DNA of 62,907 nucleotides, the filler included, from Polymyxa betae A26-41 (lineage: Eukaryota > Protista > Endomyxa: Phytomyxea), in the NCBI GenBank assembly GCA_003693705.1. It is 7 parts of 7 records of this genome, joined end to end, with 100 filler letters (N's around TTAATTAATTAA, not from the genome) between each part and the next. Parts side by side here need not be neighbours in the genome. Positions count along the whole stretch, not along the records: positions 7,123 to 25,050 come from RBZT01000517.1; 6 more parts are not named here. One strand, given 5' to 3'. A program made the position numbers and the translations under genes. Shown here piece after piece: positions 16,180 to 58,411 of the stretch (the first letter of the stretch is position 1; each line of letters opens with the position of its first letter). The notes below the pieces were generated by a model. It worked only from the letters and a program-made list of their open reading frames with translations. It did no database searches and was not told the DNA's origin.

Positions 16180-18750
16180 TGTCCCAATATGATGGGCTCG
16201 ATTGATAACGAGATGCCAGACCCTTCTGTTTTCATTAAGGTGTCAGAGCGCGATCCGAATGTGTGAACCGAATCAGATAAAGACAGCTATTTCTTTAATG
16301 TTATGTCAATGATTTCCTTCATCAATTGGTGTTCCTTATCCATATGGTCTTTTATGTTCGACACCAGATACGATGTAGCGATCTTGTTGAAGCTGTTCGA
16401 TGCTCAAGTGTGGATTTCCCTCCCGCTGCTCTTACAAATACATTCTATCATTGGAAGAGATAAATATGGTGGTTTTCCTTTCAAGGGTAACCCTTCCACT
16501 AGGATATACATACAGTCAATATTGCTGATGAATTGTTAGGTAAATTATTGAACGAGAGGCTACGGGACAGCAGATCCTGAACAAATGGAGAGATTTGCAA
16601 CATCAAGAAAATTCTTTGTTTTGCAGCATGGGGTTAATTATACAGATAGATCCAAACTACGATATGGCCACTTGATGATTGTCAGTTTCCTTCTCATGTT
16701 ACTTTTGTTCTTGTTTTTTCCAATTTGGCCCTTTAGGTGACTGATCAGGATCAAGAATGATTCTCATATTAAGGGTTTACTAATCAACTTCCTTCACAGT
16801 TTCTGGCCCTCACTTCTGCGAATGAATTCGTTTTTGTCTCAGTTTATTACACCTATTGTTACGGTCACCAAAGGTCGTCTCCCGACATGTGCCAGTGTTA
16901 TTGCTCGTAGAGAAATTTTGGAAATTGGTCGAGTTCGTTTTTCGCGATCCCGCAATATCAAGAATGACGCCAGCAATACCCCTCAGGATGGAAAATCAAG
17001 TACTTCAAAGGTCTGGGTAATTCAACGAGCAAGGACGCGAAATACTATTTCAGCGCAAATGATAAGGTCCAGATGTTTGCTTAATTGTCCCGTTTTTCGT
17101 GAAATATGCTTTTAGCACCAAGTATCGTTTAAATGGGATTCATCGATGGATGGCAAGCTCAATGACAATGCTATCGGGAAGGTAACATCACTTGACGTAT
17201 CGTTTTCGTCCTGATAAGCATTTGTTTAAGGCATTTAGCAAGAAGCGAGTCGAAGACCGGAAGACCTGGCTGTCAAATGTTCAGGATGGGACCTTTATTG
17301 ATTACCGTCGTGATCAGGAATTCGTTGACCGTGAGCCTGTTCTGTTCTCTCGATCAGACAACGTATGTTCTATTCCCTCGTTGCTTGACGGTTTGAAACC
17401 CGGTCAACGTAAATTTATTTACAGTTGCTCAAAAAGAAAGTATGACAATTTGAAAAAGTTTTCATTGAGCTAAGCTGTGAAAAGATTGACCGGCGAGATT
17501 AATGTTGCCCAGCTTAGCCGAACATGGCGAGGTTTGCGTTTGTCCTGCTGCTGTGTCCCCATATATTTATTAATGATAGTGTAGCAATCTCTTACCGCGA
17601 CCATTATCAACTATTGTGGCAGTAACAATATTTAACTTGTTGCTTCCGATCGGGTCAAACAATCTTTCCATTCTGGCAGAGAAAAACAAACGCTGCCAAA
17701 GCCGAGCGAAACGCAGAAATAATTGGATCCATATAGGAAAGGAATTAGAATGTGGATAGCATGGGGACGAGCAGGCTGATATCGTGACGAGAGCGAATGA
17801 TGCAATGACACCCGAATGGAGCTCAGATGCAATTAATGAAGTACAGATGGTCTTAATAGAGGCAAATACAGACAAATGGATCACTAAGTAGACGGAGATT
17901 ATCATCATGACTCTGTTATTTGGCCTATCCTGGCATAACGCAAGGCCAGAATTCAGATGGCTGTTAGCAACACCACGACCTAGCCATTGTGATCAGCGTC
18001 CAGTCCGGATCGAGTGGCGCTGGGCCCACCGACTAACCCGATTGTGTGAAAATGAATGATAACTGCAAACAGAGAATCTGCGAACTCGGGTCAGCTCGTC
18101 GGTCAGATCATCCAGGCACTGGTTTCATCCATTCAGTCATAGGAATGTGTTGTCTCTCATGGTTACGTACAAAGGAATTCAATTTACCCTTCAATTAATT
18201 TACAGGAAACCGCGGTCATAATCGTGGCGATGGAGCGGCAGCCGTTGTCCTGTTGTTATCCTGATCAAGGTCCCGCATGCTCTCCTGTTTCAGCATCTTC
18301 ATCAGCTCGTTGAGTATCAGGTTCCTGTCCCTATCATACAGTCGGATTGGCACCACGCCTTGAAAATTGATGAGATCAACTCGCAGGAGTAATATAGAAG
18401 AACTTGAGCTTCAATAAACCAGTAGCTAAAACGAATCAAAGTGTTTACTTATTTCTTCAGCCGTTTTCCTTGCTTCACGTCATCGCTGGCCTGGAATCTG
18501 GACACAAATCGCAGTTCGGCTTCGTAACGGTCCCGCTTCGACAGCCTGCACATAATGTTCAGAGCGAAAAGGACTGGAAACCGCTCGAAGTAAACTTGTA
18601 AAGCTGATTATATTTTTAGAAGTCAGATTGCAGAGACGAACTTGTAAGAAACATGAGCGAGTTAAAGAAACCTAACTTTCGAGACATTACTGGCAGCGTA
18701 TGGATCGGTAAGGGACAGCGGATGGAGGTTAGCAAAACGCATCCAATTTA
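16180..18750 (+). pseudogene. TOP2: Decayed DNA topoisomerase II with introns, stops and frameshifts
   Basis: Collinear motifs RYGHLMI, TDQD..SHIKGLLINFLHSFWPSLL, FITPIV, WKIKYFKGLG, AFSKKRVEDRKTWL, SIPSLLDGLKPGQRK, NLLLPIG. Boundaries approximate. Confidence 0.85.
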
Positions 18751-19933
18751 GCTGCATATTCGGATTTGTCGGATGGCGTAAACGACTTTGGATTGAATTT
18801 TCTGGATCTTGTTAACGATCTCCAATCGCCTTCCAGGCTATTGCTGTACAGGTTTTTAATAATTAGCGCTGCAAGAGCGCAGCCAAGTCCCGGATAGACT
18901 CCCTGGTGAAAGGAACGCGTCTTGGGCCTTCTCACGTCACGAACAATTCTTTGAGATGACCCGCTACCACCGATCCTCAAGCCCTAAGCGCAAATCAAAG
19001 TAGGAAAGCAGGCGCTCTGGAGCTTCACTAACCGAATGTCATAGGCTTGGTGCGAAACTGGGGTCGGCAAAAAACCGAACGGACAGTCGAAACTCGAGTT
19101 CCGAGAACACCCCAAATTCTTCAGAAGCCAAATTTTCGAAACTGCTCCCCCCGAAACTTCTAGAATTTGTCTCGAAATGGAACCAACATTCCCCAACCCG
19201 TCGAATACCTGGCCAATGCCTTTTATGTGGTATAGTCTATGCCAGTGAAAAGTGTGTTCGAGATGTGATTTTCGATCCATTGCTCTCAGCGCATTGCATT
19301 CAGGTCAACAATTCGACATGCTTACGATGTCCACCTACGCAATCACTCCATCGTGAGAGGCTCAAAGCGTAACAAGAAGGACATCGCCCTGGAAGTCGGG
19401 ATAGTACGACTGGACTTCGAAAACACATTTTATTGCGGTCCCGACATCACTCCTATCAATAATGACGCTTTCATCGCTCAGTGTGATATTTAGGTGTTCT
19501 TTTGAATACGTTCTGACCACTCTGTACAGATTGTTTGAAATTTTTTTCTCAAGCTTGCTCGATTCGTGCCGCCAGATGTCGAAATCCTCGACCGACCTAT
19601 ATTCAACCATATTACAACTTGCTTTGGCAAAGTGTAGCGGGGAATTCGTGGTCGAATATCTGTCCCAATATGCTCCTGTAGAGAAAATTTCAACGCAGAT
19701 TGCATGTTCCTTGCTTTGTTTGCATTAAACCGAAAAGAGCCTATCGGACAATTGCAAGCGATCTTTGACCATTTCACATCCGCTGTACAACAGCTGTTGT
19801 TAAGTGACAAGTGGCCAGATGTTCTGTATCAGCTACAGAACAAATGGATCGGCACTGATATTCTAGCCTTCGTTTGGGCGTCATAATCCTCAATTCATCA
19901 TGGCAGGGACTGCAGATTTTGTTGATGACGACA

Positions 19934-20041
19934 AAAGTGTTGAATTCTACAATGACCCGGGTGATCAGGAAAGTGTTGAACTTCACAATGACCCGGGTGA
20001 TCAGGAAAGTGTTGAACTCTACAATGGCCCGGGTGATCAGG
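19934..20041. repeat. 36-bp tandem repeat x3 (reads ESVELxNDPGDQ in ORF 19900-20193)
   Basis: aaagtgttgaa.t..acaatg.cccgggtgatcagg at 19934, 19970 and 20006. Confidence 0.9.
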
Positions 20042-21377
20042 ATTCGAAGCGCTCAAATCATGATTTCGAGACGAAGACCATCGCTGACCATTCATCGAAT
20101 ACTGCAGATTCTCCCTATTTGGAATCACGTATGTTCTTCTCTATGGCAATTGTGATGTATACTGAAAGATTTGCAGAAGCGGAGAAAAACTAAAATACCT
20201 TCTAATTGTCATGATCTGCTTACGTTCCGATTTTTTTAGAATCCAATGATGTCGTACGTTTAGCAAGGTTTATACAATTAATATTACGGATCCTGCATCA
20301 GGAGTGCAAGATGCATCAGGAGTGCAAGAACATATATTATATCCCATAAAGATGAAATCATTTTTTTATGGAGGGGTTCTTGGAAGACTGCCAGAGTATC
20401 TGCGAGGAGAATTCGGTAGCGATCGATGATGAGAAGACGATCACGATCACGATATGAGGCCATTTGCTTAGGAGATAGCACCGCCTGTTGATACTTGATG
20501 AAAATCAACGAACTAGTCATGTCCAATCCAATGCCATCCAGAATTGACGGAGAGACCTAAACCCTAATAGGGTCATGGCAACCATTCCTGACTACAGCCT
20601 CGGTGGCGGGATGGGACCTCATCAAGAGGGCAACGGGCTGCAATTCTCCCTCCACTGCCACCTTAGAAGTGACCGCCGAAGACACGTGTCGTGCCCCAGC
20701 TATAGGAAGGCCGCGCCTCTTCTAAGGCCGCGTCCTAAGATTGCAGCTCCTGTTTTTTGTGCTTGCCGTTACAGCACAGTGGTCATTTGCCACGCTACCT
20801 TTTTTCTTTCATTCTATTTTGAATACATCGGAAGGTTTATTCCGCGCAGACTTTCTGTGTGTTAAATCTAGGATCATCTCATCTTTTTTTGAGCGAGTCC
20901 CTGACCTTCCGAACGAATGGCCAGCCAGGATTCCGTCGTTCAAAATGGACATGATGCCTCACAGCAGAATGCTCCCATGCCCAACGTCCAGGACGTGCGG
21001 GCCAGTATCTCACGCCGCATAGAGATTCTTCAACGATCAATGGCTACACACAGCGCAGAACTGGAGTCATTGTACAACCAGGATTACGAATCCATGTCTT
21101 CAACCAACAGACGGAACGTGGACAATCGCATCTATGCCCTCATCGATTTGATCAAGTCGACTGAAGTCCGAATCGATGCGGCTCGGAGGAGCTTCTTAGC
21201 TCTGGCTCCGATTCAAATACAGGCTCCAGCTCCGGCGCCTGTATCCGCACCCTCTCAACCAGAACACGCAGCTTCCGTACATCTGGCCAGACAAGCGCGG
21301 CTGCCGTCCGGTCTACCCAAGTTCAAACGACCAACAGCCCAGGATCCGAGCGCCGCCGAGGACTTTCTCTCGGAGCT

Positions 21378-22672
21378 GGTGCAGGTCGGCCCCGTGGCTC
21401 CGGTGCTCTCAATCCTCAGGGTATCCCCGCTCTTAACAAACAATCGAAGTACTGGCTCGTCACTATACATTACGACGACGAATCGCACGTCGATCGTGTA
21501 ACAAAATTCCTCAACCTGTTCGATAACGATTGGGTAATATACGCTACTTTACGAACGCCTATAAATGTATTAATTGATCAACGTTTTTAGGTCTCGTTCG
21601 TTGTGTTTGGGCGTGAGCTGACCCAGTCGCAAGGGCCGCATCTGCAATGTTATTTGGAGTTGACGGGTGGTAAGCGCGGCCGCACTGTCAAGGCTGCGCT
21701 TGGCATAGGCGATGCGCACTTCGACGTGGTCACCAACGTCTTGCCGTGCGGCAAGAAGACAACCTACAAACACTCTCGTTGGAACTGTTTTTGTTATTGT
21801 ACCAAAGGCTCCGAAGAGCAGTCGCAAGAGGGTCCGAACCCGTCTTGGGACGGCGAGGAACGGGGGGTTCGTCCCCCCAGGCCCGCTCACAAGACGTCGT
21901 TTAAGGAGCTCGCCCAGGATGCGTTCGCTTCGTGTCGCCGTGGTGACTGGGATTCAATCGACGCTTCAATGCGGATGCGGCATGCGAATGCGCTGTTGAT
22001 TGATCGTACCCAGTTCATGGGTCGTCGTCAGGTGTCCGTGTTACCCGATAACTCACGGGATCGTAATGTCTGGATTGTCGGCCCCGGCGACATCGGGAAA
22101 AGTTATTTTGTTTGGGAAGCTTTTCGCCCCACCGATGTTTTTCTCAAGGATTCGAACAAGTGGTGGAGCGGTTATAACGACGAACCCGTCACGTTCATTG
22201 AAGAGATCGAGCCTGACGACATCAAGTCTTCGTGGATTAAAAAATGGGCCGACCTCTATCCGTTTATGGGCCAGCCGAAGCAGGAGTACTGGAAAATTCG
22301 TCCAAGTCACACTATCGTGACGTCGAATTATAGTATTGACGAATGCTACACCGACGATCGTCAACGTCTGTCGATTCACCGGCGATTTACTGAAGTCGAT
22401 CTTCGGGAGCGGTGCGCGGGCACGGCTCAGTTCTGCGCCTGCGTCCGCTGTGGTCGCCTTGAGGATGTCCGGTCTCGTGCTGCCGCCAAATCAAGGCTGC
22501 TGTAGACCGGTGGCAGTTGACTGTCGGCGATGACTGGTGTTATGTTCCTGTCCGTGTCCGCCCCATCGAGGATGTGGCCTCGACTCAAGTGTCGATCGAC
22601 GAAGACGTTGTCGCTGCCCGGGAACTTGCTGCCCTTGCGGTGAATTCGCGCCCTAATTCTCCAGCCATGTAA
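21378..22672 (+). CDS. rep: CRESS-type replication initiator Rep (HUH endonuclease + SF3 helicase); 5' truncated, intron 21534-21590, probable frameshift near 22488
   Basis: Motif I KYWLVTIH, motif II PHLQCY, motif III YCTK, Walker A GPGDIGKS, KWWSGY, Walker B IEEI, motif C IVTSN, Arg finger IHRRF. AATAAA at 22675. Confidence 0.92.
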
Positions 22673-22778
22673 CAAATAAACCGGTGCATCATCGCGCCCT
22701 TTTCGCGCGCCTTATAATCCACTGTTGTTAGCGTTTCATGTGTAGCAGCAGCTGTGCAGCTCGAGTCGTACTGCACCA

Positions 22779-23560
22779 ATGGCTGTTCGTTTTGTTCGCC
22801 GGGTAATGGTTCATTTCTATATGCTGATCGAATTGACTGCATCAAATGGAGACATCGTTTCGATTAACGATTCCGGACGACGCGAATTCACCGTCCAGGT
22901 CTTCGACGCCTTCGACGTCCAAAGATGCGTTCCGCTCAACACATATAGGTATGTTATCCACTGGAGATGTTCTCCACTGGATATCAACTCTTTAGTTTAT
23001 TTGTTCTCCACTGGAGGTTCCTTTTAATAACTCCACTGGATATCAACTCTTTAGTTTATTTGTTCTCCACTGGAGGTGTCATTTAATAACTCCACTGGAT
23101 ATTAACTTTTAATAGTGGAAAGCCCTTCGTCGACTACTTCGATCTCGTCGATGACGCAAACGCCTCCGATCGACAGCGACGACATGCGCCGGTGGCTGCT
23201 GGAGGATCTGGAGGATTGCCACTCGGATCTCCAGTCTGTGACTCATTCTCTGATGGTCCACGATCGCGAACTAGGCAGTCGTCTAATTCCGGTTCTGGAG
23301 CTGTTGGAAACGACGATTACTGCCCTGCGCCTGTATCCGGATCGTGCTTTTGGCTCTGTAAGGAGGCCGCGGGAGGAAGCGAATCGAGGCTGGCCGGGGC
23401 ACCCGCTTTAGCGGGTCGGGCATGCCTCATGAGCGAACCTGGCGGCCGCCGCCCCTCGTACGACGTTCTTATGCCTAAATCCCTTCACCAATTTTATTGG
23501 GCCGGCCGAAGGCCGTCAGGCCCGGCGCGTAAGCGCCTCGGCCTGTTACTGCCTGCTTGA
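22779..23560 (+). CDS. Second ORF of the Rep element, predicted spliced (22779-22948 + 23116-23560, about 204 aa), unknown function
   Basis: TATAA at about 22713; AG|GTATG donor and TTTTAATAG acceptor join two open frames (...VPLNTYSGKPFVDYFDLVDD...). Confidence 0.5.
22957..23099. repeat. Six TCCACTGGA interrupted palindromes in a 59-bp tandem repeat
   Basis: Copies at 22957, 22973, 23007, 23032, 23066 and 23091. Confidence 0.9.
23151..23411 (+). CDS. Possible overprinted helical protein in the Rep element
   Basis: MTQTPPIDSDDMRRWLLEDLEDCHSDLQSVTHSL... has amphipathic periodicity and overlaps ORF2 in another frame. Confidence 0.35.
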   Translation: MTQTPPIDSDDMRRWLLEDLEDCHSDLQSVTHSLMVHDRELGSRLIPVLELLETTITALRLYPDRAFGSVRRPREEANRGWPGHPL

Positions 23561-25339
23561 GGTCGTCCGTGGGGTATGCCAACCCGACCAACGCTCCGCT
23601 ATCCCCACCGGCGGTGCGCAGCCCCCGGTAGTATTGGAGCGATACCCGGAGGCTCTCGCAGCCTGTTGTGAGCGCTTGGAAGGCGACTGGGTCTTCGAAA
23701 ATCTTGTCGGAAAAGGCCTCACCTGGTCTGAAACCCGGGAATCGTTCTTCAAGCATTTTGTTAGCGACGATATCCGCTTCTACTTCGAAAACGATCTAAT
23801 TCACTGCCAACGGTTTCAAGGAGAGTCCATAATGGCTTTCGCGGACCGGTATCTTGGACGGATGAAAAGGGCTAATAGGAGTCCGGATCAAGTTCATGAA
23901 TTCACCACCGAGTTCATCGGCCAGCTGCCTCGTTCAGCAGTTAACTGGCTATATGGAATCAAGGCCGCGAATCCCGAGAAGATCAACTCTGTTCGTCAAA
24001 TCGTCAATGCCTTGACTTTATTTTGTTCAGCGGATCGTTCCTCGGCAAAGAACGTTCATCAGGCTGCATCGCACAGCAATAACACGAGCGCAGCCCCATC
24101 CTCGTCGTCGTCATCTCAATCACGCAGCACTTCCCGGAACTCCTCTCGCCAGCAACTATACTGCTCCGCTCACGGCCACTGCGGTCACAAGTCCGAGGAC
24201 TGCAGAAAACTCCAATCGGAAAAGGCTACCAAAAACTCCGTCGCAGCCAGCAACAGTAACACATCTACTCAGTCTGGGGCCAGTACGTCCACCGGACCGA
24301 AATGTCATCGATGTCAGAAACATGGACATGTCGCTCGGACCTGTCGCGCACCTAATCCCGTTGATGATCCCGATTCCGGCAAAACGTCGTCTGCGTCCTC
24401 GAATGTTGCTGCTAATCACTGTATTCAGGGCGCCTATATTGAGGAGATTGACGAGTCCGACCCCGTGTTTACCAACGACTCCGTGGATGGTTTCCATAAA
24501 CTATTCGATAATGTGGAGTCAATTCACAGCTCCGAATCCGAGTCTCATCCAGCAGTCGCCAATCGTATCGACTATTCAACTGCCATTTTCACAACAATTT
24601 CCCTCGACGGCAAAGAGGTGCAGGCTTACGTCGATACCGGCGCTTCCAACTCTACCATTTCTAAAGATTTATTCGGCACTTTCTCTGAGCGGTCGCGCTC
24701 GTCTTATCAGAACCCTACGAAGGGTCAGCTTATCTCGCTCGGTGTGAAGGGCCAGTACGCCCCGCGACCGGGCTGGGCACAGGTTCCGGTTCGCTACGGC
24801 CACAGTGACTTTACGTTTCAGTTCGACATAGGTGAACCCCCGGAAGGTGTTGCCGTCATAATGGGGCGTGATCTGCAGCGTCGTCTCGGCATCGGTGTCT
24901 GCGGCCTCCAGCTGCCGCGCTCCGTGGCGTCTTCGGTGGAACCGGCTCCTGATGATGTGTCTCCGCCACTGACGGACAATTTCCGGGATGGTCCGCCTCA
25001 CCCCTTGGCAACTCATCCGAGGCTTCTGAGCGCTATTCAGCGTAATCAATNNNNNNNNNNNNNNNNNNNNNNNNNNNNNNNNNNNNNNNNNNNNTTAATT
25101 AATTAANNNNNNNNNNNNNNNNNNNNNNNNNNNNNNNNNNNNNNNNNNNNACAACCCAAGTCGCTCGAGAACCCCGACGCGCAGAATTACTATACTGTGA
25201 AACCAGTGGGTGATGGCCTACAGCCACGGTGGATGAAAACTCCGCCGCGGAGTTTACCAAGGTATGAGAGCGCCCTAATAGACTCGAGTATTTAAAGATC
25301 AATTTTCACTTCTAATACATCTCATTCTGTTATTGATTG

Positions 25340-28231
25340 TGTTCGGCTCACATCGTTCTGAATCGTAGCCGCTCACCGAGCGAGAAAACCAACAACATAT
25401 CTTCCAGTAGAAAAACTGCGTCAGTTTCTGCGTACTCGCTTGGTACCCAAGGTGTCCACAATTGCTTCCAGCATGCGAACGGAATTATGACTTTTTTCTT
25501 GTCCGTTATTAATAAACCATTTTCATTATAGTTTTGGCCGCTCTTAGCTGGCAGCCATCTCTTCTGTATTTTCTTTATTTCTTCTATAGTAGGCCATATG
25601 AACTCAGGGCTTTGTAATGGCCTTATCCTCTGTTCGTCTGGGATCGTTATCGCTGGCACTCTACGGACTATCATTTGCGTAGCGCTTGTTTTTCATCGTC
25701 GACTGGTTTCGCTCCCCATCTGGTCATCAAGTCGACCCATATGCTGTCTTCTCCTTTGATATGCTCGATTTGATAATGAAATCGCTGCATATAAATGGCC
25801 CATCTTTGTAACTTCTGTGCTGTTATCTTTGACACATTCGTAGGTGAAACAATCTGTATGAGATTTTTATGATCACAGAACAGCTTGAATGGTCGTTTCA
25901 TCTGTAATAAATAATCCAACTTCTCCATCGTATCTTTAATGGCGAATCCTTCTTTCTCGGCAACGCTTCAGTTCATTTCGCATTTATTGAACCGGTGACC
26001 TACGAAACCTATTGGTTCGTGCCTCTGTAATGATACAGGTTTATTTATATCATCTCTTGAATCTGAGTTACCATTCCGGATGTACTTTACACGTTGGCAT
26101 CAGTGAACATGCACTGCAGCATCTCTTCTCTTGGATACGCTAATTTCACGTTGTTAGCTTTAGCCGTCTTCAGTTGCTCGAAAGCGAGAGCATGTTGCGG
26201 GCTCCATCCATATTTAGAAAGTTTAACTTGCCTCGCAACGCTTTTGTTCCTCGATGGTTGATCCTTCATAGTACTAAGTTCAAAGATATCCTGTAAACTA
26301 TGTACTTTCTTATTGTATTCAGGGATCGACCTGCTCATCCATTGTGTAGCCATCAGAAACTGCTGTAGGTCTCTTGCCGTTTTCAATAGTGTCTTAGAAA
26401 TTTACTGTCCTCTGTGTTGTACCTCCGATTTGGATATCTACACGGTCTTGCGTTTGGTACCAGGCGGGTGACAAATGGTGTAACCTTTGCTGGGGCATCG
26501 GGACCTAGTGTTATGCGCCATTCATCTCGATACTTTTGAACAAACCGGTTTAACTTTCCCGTCCATTCTTCTGGTAAGCCGTTTCGTCTAGCGGCTTCTA
26601 TCAAATTATTCAAGCCGTCTTCGATTTCTTCTACGTCTGATGGAGCTTTAATCACCATTTCTTCCAAGCCGTCGAAATCATGGCGTTCTTTTTCTTCTTT
26701 ATTATCTACTTCTTCTGTGACGTTATTATCATATATCTTGGCCCGTTTCTCGCGTCGAGCGCAGTTTTTGGCTCGATTCCGATTTCCTCTAGTAGGCCAC
26801 CCCCGAGTATAATTTCTTCACTGGGAACGTCCCATATCAGGCATTTTCGCTGTCTCGTGATAATTTCACCGCCCTTTGTGCGCAGCCCGATATCGAGTGT
26901 TACGCACTCCGTGGAGTCAACCTCTGTTCTAGTATCACCTAGTCGAAGGCGAATCTGCTCTCTCAGCCGCTCCTTCTTGATTGACACGCCGTTCCGCATC
27001 GCAATCTGTGCTATCCTTAACGGGATCAACGACATGTCCGTGGCTCCACTATCATGTATACCAGGGACGTACATGCCCTCACTAACCTTCACATCTATTT
27101 GCCGGGTTGCGTCTGGGTTTCTACCAATTCTACAGATCATCAAGTAGTTGAAATTCTTCTTAAATGTATTATCGTGCTTCTTCAACAACGTCTGCACCTC
27201 CTCCTTGGAGAGACCTTCTGGGCACTTGAACGCTGCATGGCCGTATTTACCACAGTTAAAATTCTTCAATTGTGACCGGTCTGATTTGTCGCCTTTCGCC
27301 TTCTTCATGTCTCCGGGCTTCTTGTCATCATTTCGCCCGCGCTTACGCATACTTTTCTTCTTGTCATCTTCTTCATCGTTTTTCAGGGTGTGCGTCTCTT
27401 CATGATTTATAGCCTTTTCACGCAATAATGCCATAGAGGCGACAGGCTTTTTTGCAAACTTCGGCTCCAATCTCATCTTATTTTTTATAATTGTCTTCAA
27501 TTCTTTGGCTCGATTCCGTTGGTTAAGAACCGAACTTTCATCTTTTTTCCATCTTCATCCTCAAACAGATGATTCCATCCATTTTGCTTGAGAATTTTAT
27601 TACATTGTACATAGAGATCCGTGACCCACAGGCCTGGAGAATCGATCTTCAAATCCATCTTCAACTTCTTCATCTTTTTCTCAATTTGAGAATCCTGCGA
27701 GCGGTCATCCCTCAAAGCTTGGTTAATCCAAGCTTCGATATCGTCTTCTGTGACATTCTCGACTTCGACGAATATGTCACACTCGCAAATGGTTTCAAAA
27801 ACCGTCGTCTCGATCATCGAGACCAAAGATCGTGAATTACCTGCGGTATTAACATCCCGAAAGTTGCGGATGTACAGATCCTTACTCTCAACGAATCTTA
27901 GGATCGCCTTGAGATCCAGCTTCAGTAGTAAGGGGGCCCGATTAGTCTCAACCACGGCAAGATTGCCGGAGGTTTCGTTTCGGTGACGGTCATCTGTCAT
28001 CTGGCGGCCATGATTAGCCACAATTTCTTCATTGTTGGGCAGACTGCCGTCATTGCCAACATCATCATCATCATCAGTAGTAACCGGCGAAGGGGGACAG
28101 AGTTCATCTTCTTCGACTTCGACAGAGCCTCGTCTTGTCACTCCGTCTTCTACTGTCGGAGATTCGCAATCGTAAACGATTTCGTCGTCATAAAGAGGCT
28201 CATCTTCAGATGTCGTCATCAGAGTAGCCAT
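25340..28231 (-). mobile_element. Degenerate Ty3/Gypsy retrotransposon (gag, knuckle, protease, deleted RT core, RNase H)
   Basis: CGKYGHAAFKC knuckle, HDSGA protease, LQQFL..W.S.SIPEY, FTDA, LFCDHKNL, KLQRWA, IEHIKGE; several frameshifts. Confidence 0.85.
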
Positions 28232-29779: not shown

Positions 29780-31200
29780 AAGATGGTTTATTGTTGTGGA
29801 TCGCGCGATCGCTCATACATCATTATGCAAGCCGCGAGCTTCTCATAGTTGTTCGTGCGATTGTAAATTTGGTAACAGGACGATCGCCAGCGTCCAAGCG
29901 CTTGGATCAGATGGACCTCCACGCCCATCTCAGCCAATTCCGTGGCGCCGTCAATGCGCAAGCTATGGCCTGCATAGCGCGAATCATCGATTTCCACTGC
30001 CTTCACGTTTTTGGTTAACCATTCGGTGAACTTCCGTATGATTGGCTTCCCATTCATATCCTGAAATAATGGCTGTGTAGCGTCCGATTGGTCCTCGCAT
30101 CAACAATTTGCTGAAGATAGCGGGACGCACATGCATCATTACTCGATATGGGGTGTAAAACCTTTTCGTGACGGAACTTGTTTGTCTTACTGCTATCTCG
30201 ATTAGTTCGGGGCGATTTTGAAGCATGATTGGGTCTTCGAGAACACACCGGTCGCGGATCATATCGAGGAATTCGTTCGCTCGAGCTGTCATCTCATCTG
30301 AGCCGGCGGTCCATGACCTGATTTGCCAACGCGGCTGAGCACATCCGCCGTTGATTACGTTTGCTGAGACAATGTCTCTGGAATGGTCTAATATTTCTGA
30401 AGCTGCTGTATTGCTGCTAGTTGTGGGCGCTGATAGGGCCCTGATTGCCCGCCTTTGATGATTCGTTGATGGGCTCAGTGGAATCGAGCGTCTCTTTGTC
30501 AAGATTCTTCTTCTGCAGAATTGTTCAAGCCCGCCGCTGGTTTGTCGCACGCCCACCGCGTGCCTATAAAAGTAAACCTACGTAATGCTAGGTTTTGAAG
30601 GTCGCTGATAACTAAACCGACTGCCGAATAAAGATTTTTAGTGGAAATATTTCGCTAAGTCTCATGATGTGGACGGCCAACCATCACTAATGCTCACCAT
30701 GAGACCTGGACATCGGGCCATAAGCTGTGAAACATCTTCATTTCGTTACGGGATAACGCGTCCGCAATGTCATTCTCAACACCGGGAATGTGCTGGCGTA
30801 TTATTCGACATCGGAATTCCAGTTCAAGGAAGATTTCGCGCAGGATTTTAGCCACACCTGCGTCAGTCCTACTACGTCTAGCAACCATGGCATCTACGTT
30901 TGAGAGGTTGTCAGTGCGTATAATAATGGTTTCCCAATCCAGGCCTCGCCCCATAACTCGAGGGCACGCTTTGTAGCCCAAAGTTCCTTAACGCAGTTAT
31001 GGTGTTGCTGCTTTTGGAGGGTCCAGCTGGCCGCTATTAAATAGTCTACGATTGACCAACGCACAGCAAACTGATCAACTCCGTGCGCAGCTTTTTTTGA
31101 CCTACAAATTGACCTACTTTCTTGAAAATGACCTAATGTTGAGGCCTCCCTCAACATAAGCTTTCAATACATTCGCGAGTCAAACATCCGCTGTCTTTCA
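29780..31200 (-). mobile_element. Degenerate DIRS/Ngaro-type tyrosine recombinase retrotransposon (RNase H + YR)
   Basis: YAGHSLRIDGATEL...LGRWRSSCYQIY and SKTNK (YR); KELWA, IRTDN, HIPGVENDIADALSR (RNase H). Confidence 0.85.
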
Positions 31201-35950: not shown

Positions 35951-37597
35951 TGTAAGTGGGAACGGGGCCGCGACTCATCCGAACTCGAATCCGCAGGCAA
36001 CTGCTTACATCTCCGAAATGCGAGATAAAAATGTTCCAGTGGAACAAGGTTTCAACTCAGTCGCAGGGGTGTTCCGCCTCAGTGGAGTGCAGCCCCTCCG
36101 GGGGCTGCGCAGAATATTCCAAACGTGCGGGATCGTTACGTCCAACGCTCCCACCCGATTCCGACTTGGGGAATGGCATAATGCGCGTCGCCAACTTTTT
36201 GAAAGTAATAGGAGGTAGGGATTTCGTCGACATATCAGCAATCATATCAGTAGTACAAGTGTAAGGAACTTCAACCTTGCCTTCTTCAATTGTCTGGCGG
36301 ATGAAATGGTACTTAATCTCGAAGTGCTTGGTTCTTTTTGAAGTCGTTCCATTCGCTAACGCCATCGCCCCCTTATTGTCCTCATAAATTACCGTGGGAG
36401 CTGACTGCTTAAATCCGAGATCTTGTAAAAGTCCGCGAAGCCAGATGGCTTCTTGTGCCGCAGTCGCCAGCGACACATATTCGGCTTCAGTCGTCGAAAG
36501 CGCAACACACTTCTGCTTAAGACTTCCCCAAATGACTGGGCCAGAGCTCAGCATGAGTACGAAACCACTTGTAGACTTGCGGTCCGAGATGTCTCCGGCG
36601 TAGTCCGCGTCCGCATATCCGACCAGCTGAAGATTTCCCTTGCGGAACCCAATACCTACGGACTTTGTTCCCTCTATGTAACGAAGGATCCGCTTGATAG
36701 CTTGAACGTGACTCGGTCCTGGGTTGCTTGTGAATCTTGAGAGAATGCTAACTCCGAACATAATGTCTGGTCGCGTTCCTAGGGCCAGGTACATGCGCGA
36801 GCCGATGGCCTCTGCGTACGGCTAAACTTCAGGTTCTCCTTCATGTCGTTCGAGAACAACTCCGGATGCTAGTGGAGTATTGGTCGGTCGACAGTTACTC
36901 ATTCCGTAACGTGCTAAAATAGAATCAATGTAGGCCTCTTGGGTCAGTGTGATCGACCCATCGACAGAACTCCGAGTGACCTTGATGCCCAACACATACT
37001 CTAAATCTCCCACCGGCTTCATGGAGTAGCGCGCTCTCAGTGATGTTTCCAATTCTTGCAATGCATGTCGAGAAGTAGAGGCCGCGACCATGTCGTCAAC
37101 GTAAATCGCCACGATTGTCAGCGTCGTTCGGTCTCGGCGCACATAAACACATCGGTCATAGTTTGAATTTTGAATTCCGCAGGTAGGTAAGTGCTGATCG
37201 ATTTGTTGCCACCAGACTCTTCCGGCCTGCTTCAATCCGTAGATTGCTCTTCGTAGCTTGCACACTAGCCGTCGTCGACCGTCGGGCTCTTCGAAACCTT
37301 CGGGGTGCTCCAGATACAATTCCTCTTTCAGCTCTCCATAAAGACAAGCGCTGTCAATGTCCATCTGCTTTATGGCCAGGTTCATCTTCGCCGCAATCGC
37401 GATCACGATTCGCAATGAGCACAACGAAACAACCGGTGAAAACGTTTCGTCAAAATCCACGTCGGGCTGCTGCGTAAAGCCGCGAGCCACGTATCGGGCT
37501 TTTCTGCGCACAATAACTCCGTCCGCGTTCCGTTTCGCCTTGAAGCACCATTTGCCACTGATAACGTTACGGTCATGTGGCGCTGTGACTAAAGTCC
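35951..37597 (-). mobile_element. Copia retrotransposon 3' part: RT, RNase H and 3' LTR (about 35951-36147)
   Basis: KARYVARGF, QMDIDSA, IYGLKQAGR, IYVDDM, YADADYAG, TEAEY, TKHFEIKYH; purine tract before the LTR. Confidence 0.92.
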
Positions 37598-38192
37598 TGT
37601 TAAAGACAGAAACAGGTAGCTATAGCAATGGAATCAGGGGAACAGGGTTAGCAGGAGCTGACGACGAGAAGACAAGAGACTAGGGACGTGATTGGTACAC
37701 TCACGAAACAGATCTGGCGATCTGGCCGTGGAAGACGTGTTTATGTTGGATCAATAAGTCCGTGAACTTTGCACTACGTAACATTACCCCCTCCTTTAGA
37801 ATTCGCTCTCAGTAGAGGCCCGGGTTTGTGTGGGTATCGAGCATGGAAGTTGGTGATGGCTTGACGCAGGGCAGGAGAATTGTCAGCGAGTCCTCGTGCC
37901 GGTTCCCATGATCTCTCCGACGGTGGATAACCTACCCAATCGACAAGGTATTGCAGTTGGCGACGGTGCATTCTGGAGTCCAGGACGTCCTTGACTGCGT
38001 AGAAGGGCTCGGGCGACTCCTCAGGTATCCAGAGAGGCGACGTGTTAGGATCGAGTAAAAAGTCCCCTTTTATTGGTTAGATAAGCGGTGCGATGACTCG
38101 GGAGCAGAGGGTAGGACGCGGGGGACCGGTGTCCTGCAACGGAGCGACGTCAGGGAGTCCTCGGAGGCGGAGCGGCGGGGCACGGAGTGGAG
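37598..38192 (-). mobile_element. Chromovirus (Gypsy) 3' end: chromodomain, PPT and LTR 37598-37783
   Basis: [19 protein letters not shown]; PPT AAAGGAGGGGG; LTR bounded by TGTTA...TAACA. Confidence 0.88.
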
Positions 38193-38567: not shown

Positions 38568-38873
38568 NNNNNNNNNNNNNNNNNNNNNNNNNNNNNNNNN
38601 NNNNNNNNNNNNNNNNNNNNNNNNNNNNNNNNNNNNNNNNNNNNNNNNNNNNNNNNNNNNNNNNNNNNNNNNNNNNNNNNNNNNNNNNNNNNNNNNNNNN
38701 NNNNNNNNNNNNNNNNNNNNNNTAAAACATCTTTATGCATGTTAGAGCATCTCCACCGCGTGGAGTCTATTCTAAGGTCTATTCGAGATTTCTGCGCCAC
38801 GGAGTTAAAATAGACCAAGTTTATATAGATCGCCGCACCGCGCGCGCGTTCTATTGTACATTCAAATATACAA

Positions 38874-40210
38874 ATGGATCCGATAATTGGGGAATGGTTT
38901 GAGCGAGTGCGACGGGATGCTAGCTTGGATGATGATCTGGTTGAGGCCCGGATGTTCTTCAGTTTGAAACGGAAGGCTCCCGACTCTCCTGTTCACAGAG
39001 GATCGCGTCCTGGCAAAGAACCGAATACAGAACGTGATTTTGAGGACGGGTTCCAGCGAATCTTCAAAGATTATTTCGCAGAGAATCCGGTTTTCAACTC
39101 AAGAGTGTTTCGGAGGCGATTCCGGATGCGCCGTGAGCTTTTTCTTCGAATCATGGATGGTGTTAGTACCCAGGATCCTTGGTTTGAGCAGAAAACCGAT
39201 GCTCTCGGAAAGATAGGCCTTTATCCAGTCCAGAAAATGGTCGCTGCAATCAGACTTTTAGCTTATGGTTCGAGCTACGATATGGTCGATGAGTATATCA
39301 GAATCAGCGAGTCTTCTACCAGCGAATGTTTGCAGCATTTCTGCTCAGCTGTAGAAGCCAGATTTGATGCAGAGTACTTGCGCTCACCAACATCTGATGA
39401 TTTGAAACGCATTTTGAAAGAAAACTCTGACCGAGGGTTCCCAGGAATGATAGGTTCCATCGATTGCTATAATTGGAAATGGGAAAATTGTCCTAAAGCA
39501 TGGCATGGCTCCTTTCGAGGCATCAAAGGAACTTCCATTGTCCTTGAAGCAGCAGTATCTCGCGACCTATGGTTCTGGCATGCATTCTTCGGAATGCCGG
39601 GTAGTATGAACGATATCAATGTTCTACAACGATCACCTCTGCTGCATTCAATCATAACAGGGACAATGCCTTCAATCAGCTACGAGATCAACGAAAATCG
39701 CTACGAGAATCCGTACTGGCTTGCAGATGGTATCTATCCCAACTGGCCGTCTTCATGAAATCTATCCCTGATCCCCAAGGCGCTGCAAGACAGTATTTTG
39801 CGAGGGAGCAAGAAGGCTGCCGAAAAGATGTGGAGCGAGCATTCGGTGTTCTTCAAAAACGCTTTGCTATTGTCAGAAACCCAGCACGAATGTGGGACCA
39901 GGAAAGAATGGCCTCCGTCATGCGAACCTGCATCATTCTTCACAATATGATTGTGGAGGACCAGAGAAAGGCACCGGTAGAGGGTGACGATGGTTATGAG
40001 ACAGGCAAGCCTCGTGAAGATCGCCGTCGTCGCAATCGCCAACGGATCTCTCTACCTATTAAGGTTAGGGAGACAAGCTTCGAAGATCTGCCTGCCGCAT
40101 CCTTGTCAGCAAGAGTAGGTCGTATACGAGAAACTTGCGATTCTGCTACGTATTTCCAGTTACAGTCTGACCTGATCGAGCACCTGTGGAAATCAGCCGG
40201 AAATTTATGA
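38874..40210 (+). CDS. PIF/Harbinger DDE transposase with one frameshift at about 39750
   Basis: FRRRFRM, GSIDC, NDINVL, LADGIYP, RKDVERAFGVL, CIILHNMIVED. Confidence 0.92.
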
Positions 40211-40939
40211 ATGAATACCCATTTCCTCGGTTTGCTTTTTCAGCTTAGCCAGCTCTATCCTACGTTTGAGCTCGTGGAACTCTCGCGCAGTGTCGTCCAG
40301 GGCAGAAAGGTTCACTGAAAACAATACCAATCGGATCTGCTCTTCGATCAGGTCATTACGACGTCGGGACTCAAGTACGTAAGCCCGTTGAACTTCTACA
40401 CAGTCATCATCATCGTCGCCATCCTTCTTGTAAGCCATCAGTTTCGCCTTTTTTGTTCCAATAGGTCTCCTTTGGGACCGACCTTCCGGAGCCTCCTCAC
40501 ATACATCTTGATCCTCAGGCCGCATTCGCTTACAATGCATCGCCTTTGGAGTCAAGCCCTGCTCAAACTTCGGAACCTGCTGTCGAAAATATTCCCATAT
40601 AGAGCGAAATTTGAAACCAGTTTTTTCAACTTCCTGAAAAATTCGGAATGCTTCATTTATATAATAATCTTCTTGCTCTCCCGACTTCGGCTGAGCCTTG
40701 GCCGTTGCAAGATATTCCGCAAATTTGGAGCATGATGCCTGAATCTCCTTCCATCGGTTACACAGCGCGTCTGGAGTTCGATTGCTTCCAGGGGCGAACA
40801 GCAAAAACTGCTGGAGAACTCGATTATAGAATTTGGCGCTTTTTTGATCAGCGCCTACGATTGGGTCATGGCTAACCTGCACGACAGAGCGAGCGAGGAA
40901 CATGTCCTCATCCGAGGTCCAGCCTTTGCCGCGGCCCAT
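40205..40939 (-). CDS. PIF/Harbinger ORF2 Myb/SANT-like DNA-binding protein
   Basis: WTSDEDMFLARS..VSHDPIVGADQK, RPIGTKKAK. Confidence 0.88.
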   Translation of the reverse strand: MGRGKGWTSDEDMFLARSVVQVSHDPIVGADQKSAKFYNRVLQQFLLFAPGSNRTPDALCNRWKEIQASCSKFAEYLATAKAQPKSGEQEDYYINEAFRIFQEVEKTGFKFRSIWEYFRQQVPKFEQGLTPKAMHCKRMRPEDQDVCEEAPEGRSQRRPIGTKKAKLMAYKKDGDDDDDCVEVQRAYVLESRRRNDLIEEQIRLVLFSVNLSALDDTAREFHELKRRIELAKLKKQTEEMGIHS

Positions 40940-41980
40940 TGGTTCAGTTCGTGACGAAATGACCCAAAACTGTCAAGACTTGACGCCAACATTGGAATAC
41001 GCGACNNNNNNNNNNNNNNNNNNNNNNNNNNNNNNNNNNNNNNNNNNNNTTAATTAATTAANNNNNNNNNNNNNNNNNNNNNNNNNNNNNNNNNNNNNNN
41101 NNNNNGCTGCGCCGGCGGTTCCGACAATATCTTTATACAATGAGACACATAGCATTTTTGACCAAGCAGGTATCACAGTATGGCAATCAACCCCAACGTA
41201 GTGAATGAAAACGACATCTCCACTGTTATCATTGTAAAACAGCATAAATCAGCCCAATATAATGCAACTTATCTTCGACACAAACAGAATTCATCACTTG
41301 TTCTGTTTTTTATGAAAATATTGATATTTGAGGGCTATGCCTCATTAAACAGTCTAACCAAGATAAGACCGAATATACAAGAAAATAAGAACAAGGGATA
41401 TCTCCAGTTATTGAAAGGTATACTTAAACGACCTTAATGCTATGCCAAAAAAAATAATCGAATATCTAGAAGAGCCAGGACGCATTCATATAGACGTGAT
41501 CGAGTGGTTTGGGCACGAAACCAACAACAAGATAAGTATCAGTAAGTATTCGTATATTATTATTTTTAATGAAGAGCAAGATCCTGATAATCTGGATTCT
41601 AAGACGGTGAATTGATTGTCACATTTCAGAAGTTTTTCTTATATTTGTCCTGAAAAACCTAGAGAGGAATCGATTGCTGTTGATAGCTCACGGAATAGAT
41701 CTCGTTGGGTAGAAACATCAAATTCGATGCAGAATGGGCTGGGTAGAGTGGTTCACCTATTTGAGTCAAATACTAAGAGAGTAGCAATTGAAAGGCGTCA
41801 CAGTCACGAGATGCATCCAAGGAGTACCAATGTCACGTGATCGCTCCTATCGACCCGATCGTGCTTCAGCTGACCTTCTGCATCCTCTGATACAAATTAC
41901 TCTGCTATTAGTCCAGCTCTTGAGTACTTCCAACTCGTAGCTTCTATCAGCAATGTATTACTGCCATATTATGTTAATTA

Positions 41981-56714: not shown

Positions 56715-58411
56715 ATGTCGCTGTTGGTCATCGTCGCGCTGCTCCTGGGCGTACTCGCCCCGCTGGCCCCCGTCCAGGCCGACGTCGTCCAGGTCCAGGT
56801 CCTGGCCCGTCACGGCCTGCGCAACGTGTTCCATCGCAACGAGATCGAGGTCTGGGACGATGGCGGTCAGCTCAGCGGCCACGGCTATGCTCAGATGGCG
56901 GCCATGGGCGCCGCCTTCCGCCAACGATACAGCAACCGTACGGGCCCGGCGCCTGCGGCCTGGAACGAGACCGAACTGGCAAAGGCGGTCATGGCTCGCA
57001 GCACGGATTCGCTGACGTCGATGATGTCTGCGACAGCGTTCATGCTTGGGCTAGTACCACCTGGATCGGGTCCTGTTGATGAGTTGACGGGGAAGGCTGC
57101 GCTACCAGGAGCGTTAGACCCGGTCGGTGTCCATACGGTCCCGATGCCGCTCGATATCCCGCTGCGCGCCTATGATAAATGCCCCAAGTTTATTGATGGA
57201 CTGGATGTGATGATGAACAGCACGGAGATCACCAACTGGCAGACACAGAATCAGGCCGCACTGGATAAGCTCGCTAAGATCACACGCAGTAATGTTACGG
57301 CTGTTACATATCTCGATGCATTCGAGATCATCGCTGTCGATCACGCATTTCGCAATTCAACCAATATCACCGACACCGAATTCGTAAGTTTTCGATTTTT
57401 TTGAAAAGTCTATAATTGTAAAGTTTCGTTAGTTTTCGCTTTTTTTGAAAATTTTTGTTATACTTTGTATTACAGTAGTTTTTTATTTCTGTTTCTCTAT
57501 CGTGTTCTGAAAAGGTGTCGTACAGGACCAATACGAACAGATGGCCTCGTTCCTGGCCGGGAAGATGTTCACAGGGGCCGAGACCAGCCGCATGCTGTCC
57601 GGCCGTCTGCTGGCCAACATGGCCCAGCAGATCGCCGCCGCCGTCGATGTCCGCAACATGACCATCCCCTTCATCTACCTATCGGGCCAGTATCCCACGA
57701 TCATGGCCACATATAGCGCACTGGGCGTGTACGGCGCCGCTAAGTACGTGGCAAATCCGTTTCTCGCGCTTTTTCGCAGTTTGATTTTTGAATTTTTTGC
57801 AACGTTACAATTTTACGTTACTCCGTTGATTACGTTGCACTGACAGCTATCGTTACAGGGGTGGCATTGCGGCAGAACTGCCATCTCCGGGTGCTGCACT
57901 GGTGGTCGAATTGCACCAAGACAACGCCACGCAGTCGTTCTCCGTCCGAGTTCTGGTCCATGACGCATCCCGCAACCGGATCTTCCAGGAAGTCGTACTG
58001 GACGCGTGCGACGGCGCGGCCATGTGCCCACTGGACCGTTTCATGTCGCTGCTGACAGCCAGTGCCCTGGCGCAGCCGAGCGAGTGGTGTGCTCTGTGTA
58101 ACAATACTATGACACCCCCATGTAACATAGGCAACACTGTGGAAATCCCCGTCCCAGCCCCATGTCCACCCCCATCTGACGCTGCGTCTGGGACTGTACC
58201 TGCTCAGACGGTGAATATGGATGGAGACCGCTCCGCAGCTTATGGTATCGTTACTGGAGTCGGTCTAGGGTTTCTACTGGCTACTGTTCTGTATGCCATT
58301 ATTCGTTGCACTAAGAGTCGTGTACTACAAGATCGTCTATTGCCACATATACAACAAGTATGGAATAGACGTTGTACACGCACTCCTCATCATGTAGAGC
58401 TGCAAGCATAA
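56715..58411 (+). CDS. Histidine acid phosphatase family type I membrane protein (exons 56715-57383, 57526-57743, 57847-58411)
   Basis: Signal peptide, RHGLR motif, LS.HG..QM, ARST, CP, VELH, CPLDRF and C-terminal TM. Confidence 0.88.

Follow-up and report, generated by a model that had tools for sequence, protein, structure and literature searches.

A truncated CRESS-type segment with a probably intron-bearing rep, inserted into a Polymyxa betae retrotransposon and ending at a predicted nick site

Results

A CRESS-type segment splits the gag gene of an LTR retrotransposon

The window, meaning the whole 62,907-nt stretch of Polymyxa betae A26-41 DNA that was analysed, contains an LTR retrotransposon whose gag gene is split by a CRESS-type segment. 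The features of the locus are:

20917-21375, plus strand: 5' half of the gag of an LTR retrotransposon, 153 whole codons; the insertion target
21376-23635, plus strand: inserted CRESS-type segment of about 2.26 kb; contig joints skip 2258 nt
21378-21533, plus strand: remnant of rep exon 1, with a GRPR motif and motif I (Thr at 21462)
21534-21590, plus strand: predicted intron 1, 57 nt, phase 0, GTAATA..TTTTTAG
21591-22505, plus strand: rep exon 2, with motif II (HLQ, 21639), motif III (YCTK), Walker A and B, motif C and an Arg finger
22490-22672, plus strand: C-terminal tail of Rep in another frame, resembling the C-termini of relatives
22675-22680, plus strand: AATAAA, the likely rep polyadenylation signal and the only AATAAA in the insert
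22779-22948, plus strand: ORF2 exon 1, encoding a small protein that matches no known family
22949-23115, plus strand: predicted intron 2, 167 nt, GTATGT..TAG, GC 0.35, with in-frame stops
23151-23411, plus strand: ORF3, 86 aa, of no known family
23590-23635, plus strand: left arm of the putative origin and the first 7 nt of its nonamer (TAGTATT, 23629-23635); the end of the element
23634-25050, plus strand: 3' part of gag, with a zinc knuckle and an aspartyl protease (weak Pfam matches to Retrotrans_gag, zf-CCHC and Asp_protease_2)

Two X1 contigs link 21375 with 23634 via 33 and 31 letters, and the 33-letter form stays in frame into the gag/protease ORF. Since these joints are flanked by the two halves of gag, 21376-23635 is inserted DNA, in place of about 33 bp of gag. 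The alignment of a paralog, described below, starts at 21378, near the left edge of the insert. No target-site duplication was seen at the insert edges, and TT is common to the insert end and gag at the junction. Directly upstream of the retrotransposon, a short acidic ORF contains three copies of a 39-bp unit (19940-20040).

The inserted rep is a degraded copy of a circovirus-like gene

The window Rep contains HUH motifs I-III, with a single YxxK, and an SF3 helicase. Exon 2 matches PF00910 and terminates at a premature stop; PF02407 and PF00910 are both found in relatives, and a profile of the Rep clade matches the PCV2 Rep 7lar (E 1.9e-10). Neither the window Rep nor its clade matches Gemini_AL1. 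The copy has no start codon: no ATG was found in any frame at 21300-21460, and relatives have 24-35 more residues upstream. The preliminary description starts at 21378, which is also the left boundary of the insert, an edge that it did not recognise; exon 1 is a truncated remnant. Splicing from gag seems an improbable way to rescue rep: the one in-frame AG, at 21350, is without a pyrimidine tract.

At the other end of the gene, a frameshift lies near 22487-22490, in a region that X1 and X2 contigs span gap-free. Paralog changes in the tail beyond it are silent in 3/4 cases in the tail frame versus 1/4 in the exon 2 frame, and the X4 relative has an AATAAA at the matching place. A further X1 copy of rep appears to begin at motif II (21639) with unrelated sequence upstream, and would be a second 5'-truncated copy.

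A 57-nt segment between Rep motifs I and II is very probably an intron

The preliminary description, made from the sequence alone, had extended the Rep frame upstream and delimited a 57-nt segment, GTAATA..TTTTTAG, with an in-frame TAG. Both readings were confirmed in the sequence, the acceptor TAG (21588-21590) lying in the Rep frame. The upstream frame also proved to be a real first exon with motif I: it aligns to residues 25-73 of the relative P0159 at a local score of 130, and exon 2 begins at residue 81 of the same protein. The GC content of the segment is 0.30, versus 0.52 and 0.55 in the flanking exons, and among all 57-mers within 21378-22505, the four poorest in GC are those beginning at 21533-21536, at most 2 nt from the donor. 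Only two in-frame GT..AG pairs lie near the gap, 21534-21590 and 21534-21617, the second of which was rejected as an intron because it would remove conserved residues. Within exon 2, one of 286 in-frame 57-nt windows combines a GT start with an AG end. With a branch-point-like hexamer 21 nt upstream of the acceptor, the segment has the features of a U2-type intron: GT donor, AG acceptor, AT-rich body and branch-like site.

The segment is missing from homologous proteins, whose flanks are colinear with those of the window Rep. A search of 1.84 billion protein representatives with exon 2 gave 3620 matches at E 0.001 (among the best 150, three had E below 1e-30), and full-length relatives were added through cluster look-ups and further searches. 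Motif spacing was read from an alignment of 166 proteins, in 138 of which the motif I column holds Thr and the motif II column His. The two motifs are spaced by 33-38 in 106 of the 138, and by 41 and 44 in P0009 and P0159, two uninterrupted close relatives; in the window Rep the spacing is 59 when read through and 40 minus the 19 codons. From the conserved KF to VVFG, the window Rep measures 32 read through versus 13 minus the segment, with 13 in P0161 and 15 in P0159. Dropping the 19 codons thus restores the spacing of the relatives. Against three relatives, the 18 translated intron codons score 13-19, whereas exon 1 scores up to 130.

Alternatively, the 57 nt could be a coding loop insertion, or a neutral insertion in a dead copy, with the TAG as a point mutation. 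The site is indeed a loop of variable length in relatives, four other rows of the 138 having a spacing of 65-80, and the copy is already dead. However, where the preliminary description had looked to homologous Reps aligning through the segment as the sign of such a mutation, the closest relatives were found to be without these residues. In addition, the exact GT/AG edges fit the gap in the proteins as well as the lowest GC, the paralog is most divergent over this stretch and yet resumes alignment at the TAG, relatives have split genes, and the same element has a second predicted intron. We consider this alternative very improbable; judged from the DNA and the predicted proteins, the 57 nt that part motif I from motif II are most probably a spliceosomal intron. 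No sequencing run recorded as RNA was found to contain the stretch.

The paralog, about 81% identical, lies on a 34-kb X1 contig and aligns with 21378-21505 (21 differences) and again from 21588 (170/903). In between, it has 79 unalignable letters for the window's 82 (21506-21587), 28 of which belong to exon 1. That the alignment resumes at the T of TAG suggests that the paralog keeps the stop. Of the 31 best-supported substitutions among those listed for rep paralogs, 25 fall at third codon positions and 24 are silent. Taken with the unalignable 82 nt, this points to copies that diverged under protein selection while the segment was not kept alignable.

Interruptions at several sites characterise a small Rep clade

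In a quick tree of 58 rows, built from exon 2 only, the window Rep forms a clade with P0009, P0159, P0161 and P0167 on a long branch (SH-aLRT 100). The clade has a Cys-rich C-terminal motif and an N-terminal GRPR motif, which is kept in three relatives and which the preliminary description likened to an AT-hook; the best named relative among the matches listed is the Crucivirus-520 Rep, at 32% identity. Clade DNA was not found among metagenome contigs or among viral contigs (including IMG/VR), the latter giving four generic CRESS contigs at 32-37%.

Several predicted proteins of these relatives appear to be parts of split genes. P0173 is an exon-1-like peptide in which homology is lost about 10 residues past motif I and a stop follows; P0167 is exon-2-like and begins a few residues further on, and both list a longest contig of 6283 nt. 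P0161 has 23-24 extra residues in the region of this split. P0160 is identical to P0159 over 73 residues, beyond which it departs from it and terminates, and P0010 is identical to P0159 from residue 214 onwards; the P0159 Rep appears to occur both continuous and split. Together, these gene-caller products suggest introns at three sites in the clade, two of them between motifs I and II. Automatic gene prediction breaks up such Reps and overlooks motif I, so that the clade probably has more members than are counted. On this reading of predicted proteins, the putative intron belongs to a small clade of Reps and came down with the replicon lineage; it was not gained by the window copy.

The preliminary description had further taken an intron of host-like size between motifs I and II as a sign of adaptation to this host. 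This part found no support in that form, since a diverged paralog appears to share the interruption and relatives appear to be split at two other sites. The position alone is also not new, as short N-terminal Rep introns are already known from cycloviruses: for cyclovirus CN9E, PMC8622408 describes a putative Rep intron of 56 nt that lies before motif III. The literature searched (main texts, few subscription papers) listed no Rep intron placed between motif I and motif II. A host-like size is no more than plausible: two candidate host introns in the window measure 142 and 103-132 nt, although Plasmodiophora introns average 60 bp (PMC4471660).

A second predicted intron lies in ORF2

Downstream of rep, neither ORF2 nor ORF3 has a Pfam match, and ORF2 exon 1 has no Atlas match and a low-confidence structure model (pLDDT 57). 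Among the substitutions listed for ORF2, 7 of 11 are silent. At the ORF2 ATG, X4 and the window differ at no fewer than 14 positions in the 36 nt before it and at no fewer than 7 in the 160 nt after it. An X1 paralog with a loose end behind 23220 has mostly silent or conservative changes in the ORF3 frame, as read by eye.

An X3 contig joins 22938 to 23114 via 8 letters, so that exactly the 167 nt of intron 2 are missing while the flanks remain colinear; the end of an X4 contig has the same letters as the X3 joint. These contigs could derive from spliced RNA or from a relative that has no intron here. At 22952-23110, the predicted intron holds 2.4 copies of a 59-bp tandem unit with near-palindromic TCCACTGGA motifs, and other copies have motifs related to TCCACTGGA near 23049-23350. 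The retained 2.26 kb contain no capsid gene; the 5' part of the element is lost.

The insert ends at the predicted nick position of a rolling-circle origin

CRESS origins are nicked after the seventh base of the nonamer, and it is at this position that the window copy terminates. Beyond 23635, another X1 contig reads AT followed by 13 nt that repeat 23590-23602 exactly in inverted orientation, an arm expected by chance at about 2e-5. The putative origin is thus a stem around TAGTATTAT, which fits the NANTANTAN pattern (as given in the available part of PMC7468197), with the nonamer on one side of a large loop, versus a small apical loop in the canonical form. Because the right arm is absent from the window, its origin region folded alone gives no significant hairpin (z -0.6). 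A GC-rich branched hairpin (23497-23547, z -3.1) lies upstream of the origin and is also present in X1 and X2 variants.

The end at TAGTATT could be coincidental, the insert being an ordinary endogenous viral fragment that was captured by non-specific repair, with the intron still real. Truncated and degraded CRESS Rep fragments in host genes and transposons are known (PMC3198968, in part), TAGTATT occurs 12 times in the window, and the nick-site end is seen at a single host junction. Against this, the probability of finding this 7-mer at the junction by chance, computed after the fact, is about 5e-4, and an independent contig has the matching stem arm directly after TAGTATT. We regard a coincidental end as improbable.

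A second insertion site at 23635 in another contig was considered and rejected, as the letters there are the right arm of the origin; precise ends in multiple copies were accordingly dropped as evidence. The six gag bases after the junction (23636-23641) are identical to part of that right arm, a match noticed afterwards. The target could therefore pair with the left arm of the origin, and the match may reflect either target guidance or chance.

Copies of the element differ in sequence and in their ends

At least four distinct rep sequences and several variants of the origin region occur in one run, and related elements are present at about 55x depth in runs under two other organism labels. 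Copies are about 81-86% identical, with no near-identical burst, and the window copy appears single-copy by depth, its contigs having 214-219 versus 204 for the unique 34-kb contig.

This diversity bears on a second alternative, in which the element, as a transposon of the rolling-circle type or an integrating plasmid, has no capsid but retains the SF3 helicase, and its Rep cuts the target and joins the TAGTATT end to it. Targets might then be chosen by pairing with the origin stem, and the intron would be equally real. The variety of copies and the other organism labels fit such an element, as do the end exactly at the nick position, the six target bases matching the right arm, a length of 2.26 kb without a capsid gene, the 2.5-kb contig of P0159, and the multiple introns, which recall Replitron-1 (PMC10288648, in part). 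However, the divergence of the copies and the single-copy depth speak against it, the target was deleted and neither duplicated nor cleanly split, another copy continues through the origin instead of ending there, and the contigs of the other relatives (4.1-6.3 kb) have room for a capsid gene. The absence of close relatives from IMG/VR contigs favours neither reading. We consider a transposon or integrating plasmid possible but doubtful.

Discussion

We favour, at a probability of roughly 0.6, the reading that the insert is a dead chromosomal copy, 5'-truncated and frameshifted, of a likely circular CRESS-type ssDNA replicon with spliced genes, and that the nicked end was its point of capture. 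When the replicon was active, the spliceosome of the host would remove the 57 nt and join motif I to motif II, while unspliced rep RNA would stop at the acceptor TAG and yield no nuclease. Rep would nick TAGTATT^AT, leaving a free 3'-OH end that could be ligated to, or primed on, gag DNA. Resolution of the other end would have cost the element its 5' part and gag about 33 bp. Such a spliced CRESS-type replicon would have entered the chromosome several times.

Spliced Reps of the Geminiviridae and Genomoviridae are of the gemini type and have their intron after motif III; the window Rep differs in that its interruption precedes motif II and in its missing Gemini_AL1 match. Closer are the CRESS viruses with circovirus-like Reps (Arfiviricetes; cycloviruses, cruciviruses), which share the HUH-Y1 nuclease (HLQ, YxxK), the SF3 helicase and the NANTANTAN nonamer, and in which putative GT-AG Rep introns are described for 36 of 461 cruciviruses in the available text of PMC7468197. 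In contrast to these, the present Rep belongs to a separate long-branch clade with Cys-rich C-terminal and GRPR N-terminal motifs, is interrupted between motifs I and II, relatives appearing to be split at differing sites, and is accompanied by a second intron-bearing ORF and no capsid gene that we could see.

Endogenous CRESS elements (Liu 2011, PMC3198968; BdDV-1, bioRxiv 2023.03.16.532857; yam EGV, PMC5014472) are likewise chromosomal Rep copies, often truncated and some inside transposons, with purifying selection between separate integrations; the portions of these reports available to us describe neither Rep introns nor an end at the nick site. According to the same portion of its report, BdDV-1 is without the stem-loop nonamer and has a capsid gene, unlike the window element. 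In the literature searched (main texts, few subscription papers), we found neither a CRESS virus or element from a plasmodiophorid nor an endogenous copy that terminates at the nicked base.

Among eukaryotic transposons, Replitrons (PMC10288648, here and below as far as its available text goes) share a Y1 Rep with HUQ related to CRESS Reps, transposase introns, low copy number and a size of 2-4 kb. They differ in having no helicase, short direct terminal repeats and little divergence among copies, and in TSAR they were found only in stramenopiles; the window element keeps an SF3 helicase and a viral-type origin. A Rep without helicase, as in Replitrons, is thus not what we find here; the left end that could have held a terminal direct repeat is lost, and copies are only about 81-86% identical. 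Helitrons (PMC10288648) share the rolling-circle logic, the absence of target-site duplications and a hairpin near the 3' end, but fuse a Y2 Rep to an SF1B helicase, whereas the window element combines Y1 with SF3. If plasmodiophorid genomes housed a family of rolling-circle transposons without capsid but with a full CRESS Rep and SF3 helicase, a viral origin and spliceosomal introns gained and lost at several sites, which inserted by joining the nicked TAGTATT end to targets that mimic the stem, this family would be a missing link between CRESS viruses and Replitrons; we think it unlikely.

The locus links an unclassified Rep clade to a host that is probably a plasmodiophorid; as a lead in this direction, the best Atlas cluster of a neighbouring membrane protein is mostly Endomyxa (0.90). 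A small viral-type gene family with introns at differing sites, one of them present in one member and missing from another, would make it practicable to study how very small DNA replicons gain and lose introns. In the favoured reading of a captured ssDNA replicon, the junction at the nick base would show directly, at the sequence level, how such replicons get into chromosomes. More of the interest lies, in our opinion, in the insertion that ends at the origin and in the shifting introns.

Other elements in the window

Decayed fragments of DNA topoisomerase II (TOPRIM_C, DNA_topoisoIV) lie at 17186-18983. On the minus strand, 36060-37619 and 25348-28231 contain a Copia reverse transcriptase (RVT_2) and decayed Ty3-like gag-pol pieces. 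A tyrosine recombinase fragment at 29788-30099 (PF00589, E 1.2e-5) is possibly a DIRS or Crypton remnant, and a Harbinger-like element at 38829-40972 combines a Plant_tran transposase, spread over two frames, with a Myb-like ORF that faces it. A host histidine acid phosphatase gene (PF00328) with at least two candidate introns is located at 56715-58408.
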